Positions 42,010 through 42,180 of a DNA stretch of 46,440 nucleotides are shown piece by piece. Within the stretch, counting starts at the first letter, position 1; every line of letters starts with the position of its first letter. The stretch lies in sequence record NC_024784.1; one strand, 5' to 3'. A model generated the notes under the pieces. It was not told the DNA's origin. It saw only the letters and a list, made by a program, of their open reading frames with translations, and did no database searches. Origin of the DNA: Escherichia phage vB_EcoS_AHS24. Position numbers and translations under genes: made by a program.

Positions 42010-42180
42010 CGTCAGATTTATGGATTGTTGCAGGCATTGCGATGATTAGCATGACCATTACACATAAAGCAATATTTCATCGATTGCAATGATTTTCTGG
42101 ACTGTTGCGAATTTATCAATGATTGATGGATTGATGGAATGAAGTGAGGGTTGTATCAACTAGTTGGTTGGTTTTAGCTT
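42010..42180. repeat. iteron-like short direct repeats (GATTG / CAATGATT / GATTGATGGA)
   Basis: Clustered repeats such as ATTGCGATGATT, GATTGCAATGATT, GATTGATGGATTGATGGAATGA in divergent intergenic region. Confidence 0.4.

Follow-up and report, generated by a model that had tools for sequence, protein, structure and literature searches.

The 46,440-bp window analyzed here is the whole genome of Escherichia phage vB_EcoS_AHS24 (AHS24; NC_024784.1), a T1-like siphovirus of the genus Rogunavirus, family Drexlerviridae, the genome of which has been published as circularly permuted. The locus of interest, 42010-42180, sits inside a 672-bp gap (41937-42608) that holds no credible genes and has divergent early gene blocks on either side. 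The leftward block of small early genes borders the gap on the left, its first ATG being at 41936. The rightward block begins at 42609 and continues across the end of the window into terS (1-516). Escherichia phage bV_EcoS_AHP24 (AHP24) is 100% identical to AHS24 over the 1.2 kb surrounding the locus. Within the rightward early block (42900-45859) the two genomes show a net difference of 279 bp, and tRNA-Arg is found at 45859 in AHS24 and at 46138 in AHP24.

The features at the left side of the gap are listed below from left to right; the dyads have no strand.

41964 to 41992, minus strand: promoter-like site of the leftward early block, AAGACA-N17-TATAGT, found by a consensus scan; it borders the repeat array and is not part of it.
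41991 to 42008, minus strand: one copy of the promoter-associated repeat ATAGCACnnnTTGnTAAA, of the T1/TLS type, forming the left border of the array; mean variability 0.04.
42015 to 42023, plus strand: conserved block GATTTATGG, directly left of the first dyad; mean variability 0.06 across relatives.
42023 to 42047, centre 42035: dyad O1, GATTGTTGC-AGGCATT-GCGATGATT, with the core TTGC-N7-GCGA.
42053 to 42077, centre 42065: dyad O2, with the core TTAC-N7-GCAA in AHS24 and TTGC-N7-GCAA in most relatives.
42070 to 42094, centre 42082: dyad O3, with the core TTTC-N7-GCAA in AHS24.
42100 to 42124, centre 42112: dyad O4, GACTGTTGC-GAATTTA-TCAATGATT, which includes TTATCAATG.
42121 to 42152, plus strand: C-poor G/A/T tract with 2.8 copies of the 8-bp tandem GATTGATG (TRF) and the maxima of GAT-motif density.

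The -10 element of the leftward promoter (ACTATA on the + strand) is retained in the relatives, and its spacer varies. The repeat at the left border of the array is one copy, at the edge of the locus (41991-42008), of the 21-nt intergenic direct repeat of TLS and T1 (aaATAGCACnnnTTGnTAAAA). This promoter-associated repeat has been described in TLS, and its function in T1-like phages is listed as an open question (PMC11447400). It is dispersed, with 17 copies of ATAGCACnnnTTGnTAAA in the AHS24 genome against 0.59 expected, each oriented along transcription, whereas the dyad and GAT repeats are found at a single locus. The copies of ATAGCACnnnTTGnTAAA include those at 15105, 30620, 33016, 41156 (-), 41991 (-) and 43668. 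At the opposite side of the gap, a probable rightward early promoter (42551-42578, +; TTGCGA-N16-TAAGAT, with a TG upstream of the -10) was recognized by eye and scores below the threshold of the scan. In T1, TLS and SU57, analogous promoters of the TTGAC type directly precede the first gene of the rightward block.

An initial sequence-only reading of this DNA described the locus as a cluster of iteron-like direct repeats, which might be a replication origin or a regulator binding array. All the strings quoted in that description are present (ATTGCGATGATT at 42036-42047, GATTGCAATGATT at 42082-42094, GTTGCGAATTTATCAATGATTGATGGATTGATGGAATGA at 42104-42142 and TTATCAATG at 42113-42121), and the repeat finder TRF places the tandem GATTGATG, in 2.8 copies, at 42121-42142. 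The cluster is non-random, but four dyad-symmetric 25-bp units and a GAT-rich tract describe the repeats better than direct repeats or iterons do. The true unit is revealed by an alignment of 17-19 relatives (Rogunavirus, Lindendrivevirus, Wilsonroadvirus, several Braunvirinae and Nouzillyvirus). It is the 25-bp dyad RATYRTTGC-N7-GCAAYRATY, the core of which is TTGC-N7-GCAA.

The half-sites of the dyads are the most constant part of the array, with a mean variability of 0.02-0.12 compared to 0.11-0.30 for the spacers and gaps. In O1, which is 96% self-complementary over 17 relatives, the two half-sites have variabilities of 0.04 and 0.02 and the spacer 0.11. The left half-site of O4 is near-invariant (0.04), and its right half is looser (0.19). 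O2 and O3 overlap via a central GCAATATTGC palindrome of the relatives. As the spacing of the dyads is 30, 17 and 30 bp, the array is symmetric about 42073/42074. In the lineage of AHS24, AHP24, C119 and phiKP26, each dyad has exactly one degenerate core element (GCGA, TTAC, TTTC and TCAA, within 42028-42119), and the other genera retain perfect TTGC-N7-GCAA cores. Within the C-poor tract that follows the dyads, GAATGAA (42137-42143) is invariant (variability 0.02); the sequence of the rest drifts, being GATTGATGG, GAGTGAGTG or GGGGGG depending on the lineage, and its composition is kept. T1, Chapo, TLS and KPN N141 possess analogous G-rich or GATT-rich tracts.

The array has no second copy in the genome. 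The motifs TTGCRATGATT and GAYTGTTGC each have two exact occurrences in the 46,440 bp (both strands), and all of these fall inside 42023-42108. The 25-nt composite GATTGTTGC-N7-GCAATGATT, allowing up to 3 mismatches, is found at 42023 and 42100 only, against 0.10 sites expected. Four sites matching TTGC-N7-GCAA with one mismatch are packed into 110 bp, a clustering that none of 100 shuffles reproduced. The densities of GAT[TG] and GATTG both reach their genome-wide maxima at the locus.

The left 175-270 bp of the gap are about 80% identical to 132 phage records, all but four of which carry the name of an Escherichia, Shigella or Enterobacteria phage or of a Drexlerviridae genus. In many of them, the identity of TerS is only about 64%. 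MSK has four exact cores with the same 30/17/30 spacing as AHS24, and the 7 exact TTGC-N7-GCAA sites of its genome, 4 of them clustered, compare to 0.7 expected. In T1, exact cores are found at record positions 2, 32 and 165, and the 30-bp spacing of the dyads is kept. The layout is also kept, with drifted sequences, in TLS, where the palindrome AGACCGATTGGTCT is present twice in tandem together with a tract rich in GATT(T)G, and in Klebsiella phage KPN N141, whose repeats are T1-like (TTCC/GGAA and TTGC/GCAA) and accompanied by a G-rich tract and the A+T microsatellite. No copy of the array was found in 5,426 E. coli genomes or 72,556 plasmids, nor, with satellites included, in 185,579 species genomes, in which 45 matches cover the seeded 24-mer only; a scan of IMG/VR yielded just 7 further loci, mainly known isolates. 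No description of the repeat architecture was found in the literature searched, a body of work that the T1 and Rtp genome papers lie outside of. Non-conservation of the repeats in relatives, which had been put forward as an outcome that would speak against a functional element, was looked for, and the repeats proved to be conserved. In this respect the initial reading was right: the divergent early gap does contain a conserved, non-coding set of repeats of a kind that proteins bind.

The conservation might instead be ascribed to a small gene (AHP24_65; EC3a_70, 'putative membrane protein') or to a structured RNA, with the DNA sites playing no part. A 39-codon frame at 41973-42092 (+) is open over most of its length in the relatives, and G-U pairs would allow 9-bp hairpins on the + strand of O1 and O4. 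However, the variability of the frame by codon position (0.067/0.132/0.101) has no third-position excess, its start is not conserved, and in-frame stops interrupt it in 5 of 16 relatives. The RNA fares no better: covariation does not exceed that of shuffles (183-299 of 500), the folding z-scores range from -0.7 to +1.35 with unremarkable energies on both strands, and Rfam gave no match. A gene or an RNA as the cause of the conservation is extremely improbable, and the 39-aa frame, which runs over the promoter repeat and the dyad array, is probably a mis-annotation. Further to the right, at 42195-42240, RNAalifold predicted no conserved hairpin. The half-sites of O1 and O4 differ at three positions, all of them transitions, and their orientation permits G-T pairs on the + strand only. 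These three positions are invariant in 13-17 of the 17 relatives; single-strand structure has no other support.

By combining the available data on the ends of virion DNA in the relatives, it is possible to place the locus with respect to DNA packaging. The ends were projected onto the AHS24 window through the alignment, and we therefore infer, from four relatives, the following zone in AHS24.

42142 to 42177, plus strand: inferred pac cleavage zone, spanned by the projected ends of four relatives, directly right of the array.

In vB_EcoS_Chapo (Chapo; Tunavirus), a close relative of T1, the pac cut appears as identical ends in about 20% of the reads at record position 68/69. The cut, GGGGGGATTTA/GTGTTACC (the slash marks the break), is 17 nt beyond the end of the second TTGC-N7-GCAA dyad unit and projects to about 42142-42144. 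The record of UDF157lw (Rogunavirus), which was re-ordered according to PhageTerm, breaks at GGAGGTT/TGGATCAA, corresponding to 42151/42152 of the window, and the junction of its end and start is contiguous in Jk06. The forward terminus assigned by PhageTerm in MSK (Braunvirinae) is at 36,862 (p = 1.6e-9; GGACTA/CCATAC), or about 42159 in the window. The start of the SU57 record is a PhageTerm candidate coinciding with an abrupt change of coverage; the junction, GTTGATTTTA/CCAATCG, equals 42176/42177, and its authors' choice between several PhageTerm candidates was guided in part by the analogy to T1. Two of these four end positions are record boundaries. The mapped ends are spread over about 35 bp, and the start of the T1 record is elsewhere in the array. 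Position 1 of that record, which opens an annotated 2800-bp repeat region (terminal repeat), falls inside the first dyad of T1 (GATT/GTTGCATGG). The record ends of Rtp and Rogue1, which are record boundaries, correspond to 42067 and 42073. The analysis shows the array to be genuine, without a second copy in the genome, non-coding and modularly conserved, and to adjoin the virion DNA ends of four relatives, which were determined independently from read ends.

Because the array is located exactly where the relatives start to cut and package their DNA, it is most likely pac and not a replication origin. The segment 42010-42180 very probably contains pac. It is also probable, at a lower level of confidence, that the repeats themselves are the recognition module of the pac region, together with the cleavage zone, of a T1-like phage that packages its DNA rightward by the headful mechanism. 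T1 and TLS are known to initiate headful packaging series at pac. As expected for a pac site, AHS24 is a headful phage that encodes both a small and a large terminase subunit (TerL at 1052-2641), and the site is unique in the genome. The protein that could recognize it in trans is encoded as follows.

1 to 516, plus strand: TerS gene, candidate trans-acting recognition protein, about 4.3 kb downstream of the array on the circular map.

TerS matches the Pfam family GP3_package (E 6.8e-8) and the P22 gp3 nonamer (PDB 3P9A, E 1.8e-12), and it shares 30% identity with P22 gene 3 by tblastn. TerS is a clear homolog of P22 gp3.

The initiation of packaging would probably proceed in the following way. 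Terminase would assemble on concatemeric DNA at the unique module, made of the four 25-bp dyads (42023-42124) and the C-poor, GAT-rich tract extending to about 42152. TerL would make the cut that initiates the series about 20-50 bp to the right of the module (42142-42177). The first headful would run rightward, toward the small early genes and terS. Later cuts would be sequence-independent headful cuts, giving rise to terminally redundant, partially permuted virion DNA, as is known for T1.

The dyads and the GAT tract are the presumed recognition elements, with TerS, rather than another protein, as the presumed binder. A pac cut beside the array is no proof of recognition of the array by the terminase. 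The dyads suggest a dimeric binder, and the P22-type TerS is nonameric, with a single asymmetric 22-mer as its known pac site, so that binding of the dyads by TerS is no obvious fit. In a comparison of protein co-conservation between AHS24 and MSK, T1 and TLS, TerS was not singled out as the binder. A dyad found inside the terS gene of MSK is not conserved in AHS24.

The symmetry of the sites leads to the suggestion that the dyads are bound by a dimeric phage protein, for instance the Cro-like regulator encoded at about 30134-30607 or an early protein, and that the pac cut is merely adjacent. Such a protein would regulate the divergent early promoters or serve in some other way to mark the region. 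The dyad symmetry and the 11-bp distance from core to core are typical of helix-turn-helix dimers, and the array is 65-170 bp upstream of the leftward promoter. The Cro-like protein is 86% identical in MSK, which also has the array, and two small early proteins (41323-41562 and 41573-41752), about 90% conserved in MSK, adjoin the array. Both of these small proteins, however, are absent from T1, the dyads of which are perfect. The dyads occur at one locus, with none in the promoter gap of the regulator (30607-30698) or in the gap at 22230-22640, and the array lies upstream of the promoter and does not overlap with it. An operator also leaves the four mapped DNA ends at the edge of the array unexplained. 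We consider an operator array rather unlikely. It is less likely still that the dyads, as an array of a dimeric phage protein and not as terminase sites, mark a combined control region. It is just as doubtful that, in such a region, the cut zone (42142-42177) is physically coupled to the control of replication and early transcription at 42202-42345. If this were true, the Drexlerviridae would have an accessory factor, not previously described, that organizes pac and ori.

The possibility of a replication origin deserves consideration as well. The lambda origin contains four dyad-symmetric iterons, and the dyads of AHS24 might act in the same way, with A+T-rich DNA nearby being unwound. The initiator could then be the DUF3987 helicase-like protein (38127-39716) or its short paralog (43124-43684). 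The four-dyad layout does resemble the lambda origin: in lambda ori, in plasmid oriV and in AHS24, similar units of about 20-25 bp, four in number and each with internal dyad symmetry, are clustered. The same gap holds a near-pure A+T tract of about 60 bp with (TTA)7, preceded by TACGC-type repeats, and this pairing is conserved to T1. The phage encodes its own primase and helicase-like genes, and there is no known origin in the family.

Nevertheless, the AHS24 array differs from iteron origins in having no DnaA box, no adjoining A+T element and no adjacent initiator. Iteron origins have three or more regularly spaced direct repeats of about 17-22 bp; the array has four units of 25 bp, but they are dyad-symmetric, irregularly spaced (30/17/30) and two of them overlap. 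The string TTATCAATG, which had been taken for a DnaA-box-like sequence, has 3 mismatches to TTATNCACA, and its TTATC part is not conserved, the relatives having GAGCAATG or GTGAAATG. DnaA boxes are absent: no TTATNCACA site with one mismatch or fewer exists in 42010-42180, and such sites are depleted genome-wide (75 compared to 110 expected). No A+T-rich element was found directly beside the array, where a G-rich, C-poor tract comes next; the nearest A+T-rich DNA is at about 42285-42345, with the A+T tract about 160 bp from the array and the pac cut zone between them. No initiator gene was found beside the array either. The neighbors encode small uncharacterized proteins and a DUF7174 protein, the latter being the product of the next gene, and the DUF3987 gene is 2.3 kb away. 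The GC skew merely tracks the direction of transcription and is uninformative, there is no excess of single-strand structure, and the positional data place DNA ends here and none place initiation. An origin at the array is unlikely. The original alternative of an origin or a regulator array holds as far as conserved repeats of a protein-binding type are concerned; the DnaA box, the adjacent A+T element and the neighboring initiator that an origin would call for are all absent. The positional evidence on function consists entirely of the mapped ends in four relatives and the left end of the T1 record, and it points to the initiation of packaging, a reading that the original alternative did not include.

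A second module is present in the same gap, outside the locus, at 42202-42345. It consists of GTACGCG, TTTACGCC (42244) and TTTACGCG (42264) repeats within 42202-42271, followed by the A+T tract, which is about 60 bp long and almost pure, with (TTA)7 at 42313-42334. The same layout is found in T1 (AAATTACGCC twice and an A+T tract), MSK, SU57, ESCO41 and KPN N141. This module looks more like an unwinding element, an origin or a promoter region than the array does, and if the gap holds an origin, it is the better candidate. The DUF3987 protein (P-loop helicase-like, 529 aa, 38127-39716, minus strand) and its 186-aa paralog (43124-43684, plus strand) are encoded across the gap from each other. 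The paralog repeats the first 48 residues (67% identity) and the last 64 residues (50% identity) of the DUF3987 protein and is without the ATPase core; the two may be an initiator and a truncated regulator. A second divergent non-coding gap, at 22230-22640, separates a lipoprotein gene from a Rha-type regulator and a recombination module. It contains tandem GTAACCGAT (2.3 copies), TATTACTATATA (2.2 copies) and ATATAG (2.5 copies) and two inverted TTACGCG, and is another candidate for an origin-like or regulatory element.

Phages of the T1 type are feared as contaminants in laboratories, carry out generalized transduction and are candidates for therapeutic use. So far, their pac has been placed roughly, as in T1 and TLS, or as a single cut coordinate, as in Chapo. 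The module delineated here, which is family-wide, consists of four TTGC-N7-GCAA dyads, a GAT-rich tract and a cut zone. It might be useful for studying the recognition of DNA by a small terminase of the P22 type and for engineering the specificity of packaging or transduction, and it lets Drexlerviridae records open at a biologically meaningful position. The spurious 'membrane protein' frame can be removed from annotations. The result leaves current concepts unchanged, and the element is of an ordinary kind.

The array can be compared to several known pac sites. The P22 system has a homologous TerS and, like the T1-like phages, starts its headful series from one preferred site, with cuts scattered across tens of base pairs. 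Its pac, however, is a single asymmetric 22-mer within gene 3, whereas the candidate pac of AHS24 is a composite of about 130 bp, made of dyads and a GAT tract, which is non-coding and 4.3 kb upstream of terS. A similarity to P22 pac has been invoked for TLS (PMC11447400). In AHS24, the likeness to the P22 pac core (AGATTTAT) does not go beyond chance, with 10 occurrences in the genome, and the best matches to the P22 pac 22-mer and 12-mer are elsewhere in AHS24, MSK, T1 and TLS. The likeness of the GATTTATGG block to this core is not significant.

The likeness to the pac sites of SPP1 and P1 is one of plan only, and the sequences of the boxes differ. In SPP1 (pacL-pacC-pacR) and P1, several short repeated boxes flank the cleavage zone, and the first cut leaves part of the recognition DNA on the side that is not encapsidated. 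The terminase is of another family, SPP1 G1P belonging to Pfam Terminase_2. With regard to Dam sites, 42010-42180 has no GATC.

The closest counterpart is the pac of T1 and Chapo. It occupies the homologous locus, within the large non-coding gap that separates the leftward from the rightward early block, and has the same plan of TTGC-N7-GCAA dyads with 30-bp spacing and a G-rich tract after them. Phages of the AHS24 type have four dyads (30/17/30), whereas T1 has two adjacent dyads and one at position 165. The left part of the T1 region differs, with repeats of the ATTCCA-N7-TGGAAT type, and the promoter-type repeat is to the right of the cut in T1 and to the left of the array in AHS24. The AHS24 array is thus of a kind already known, a homolog of the T1/Chapo pac, with a better-resolved sequence anatomy.
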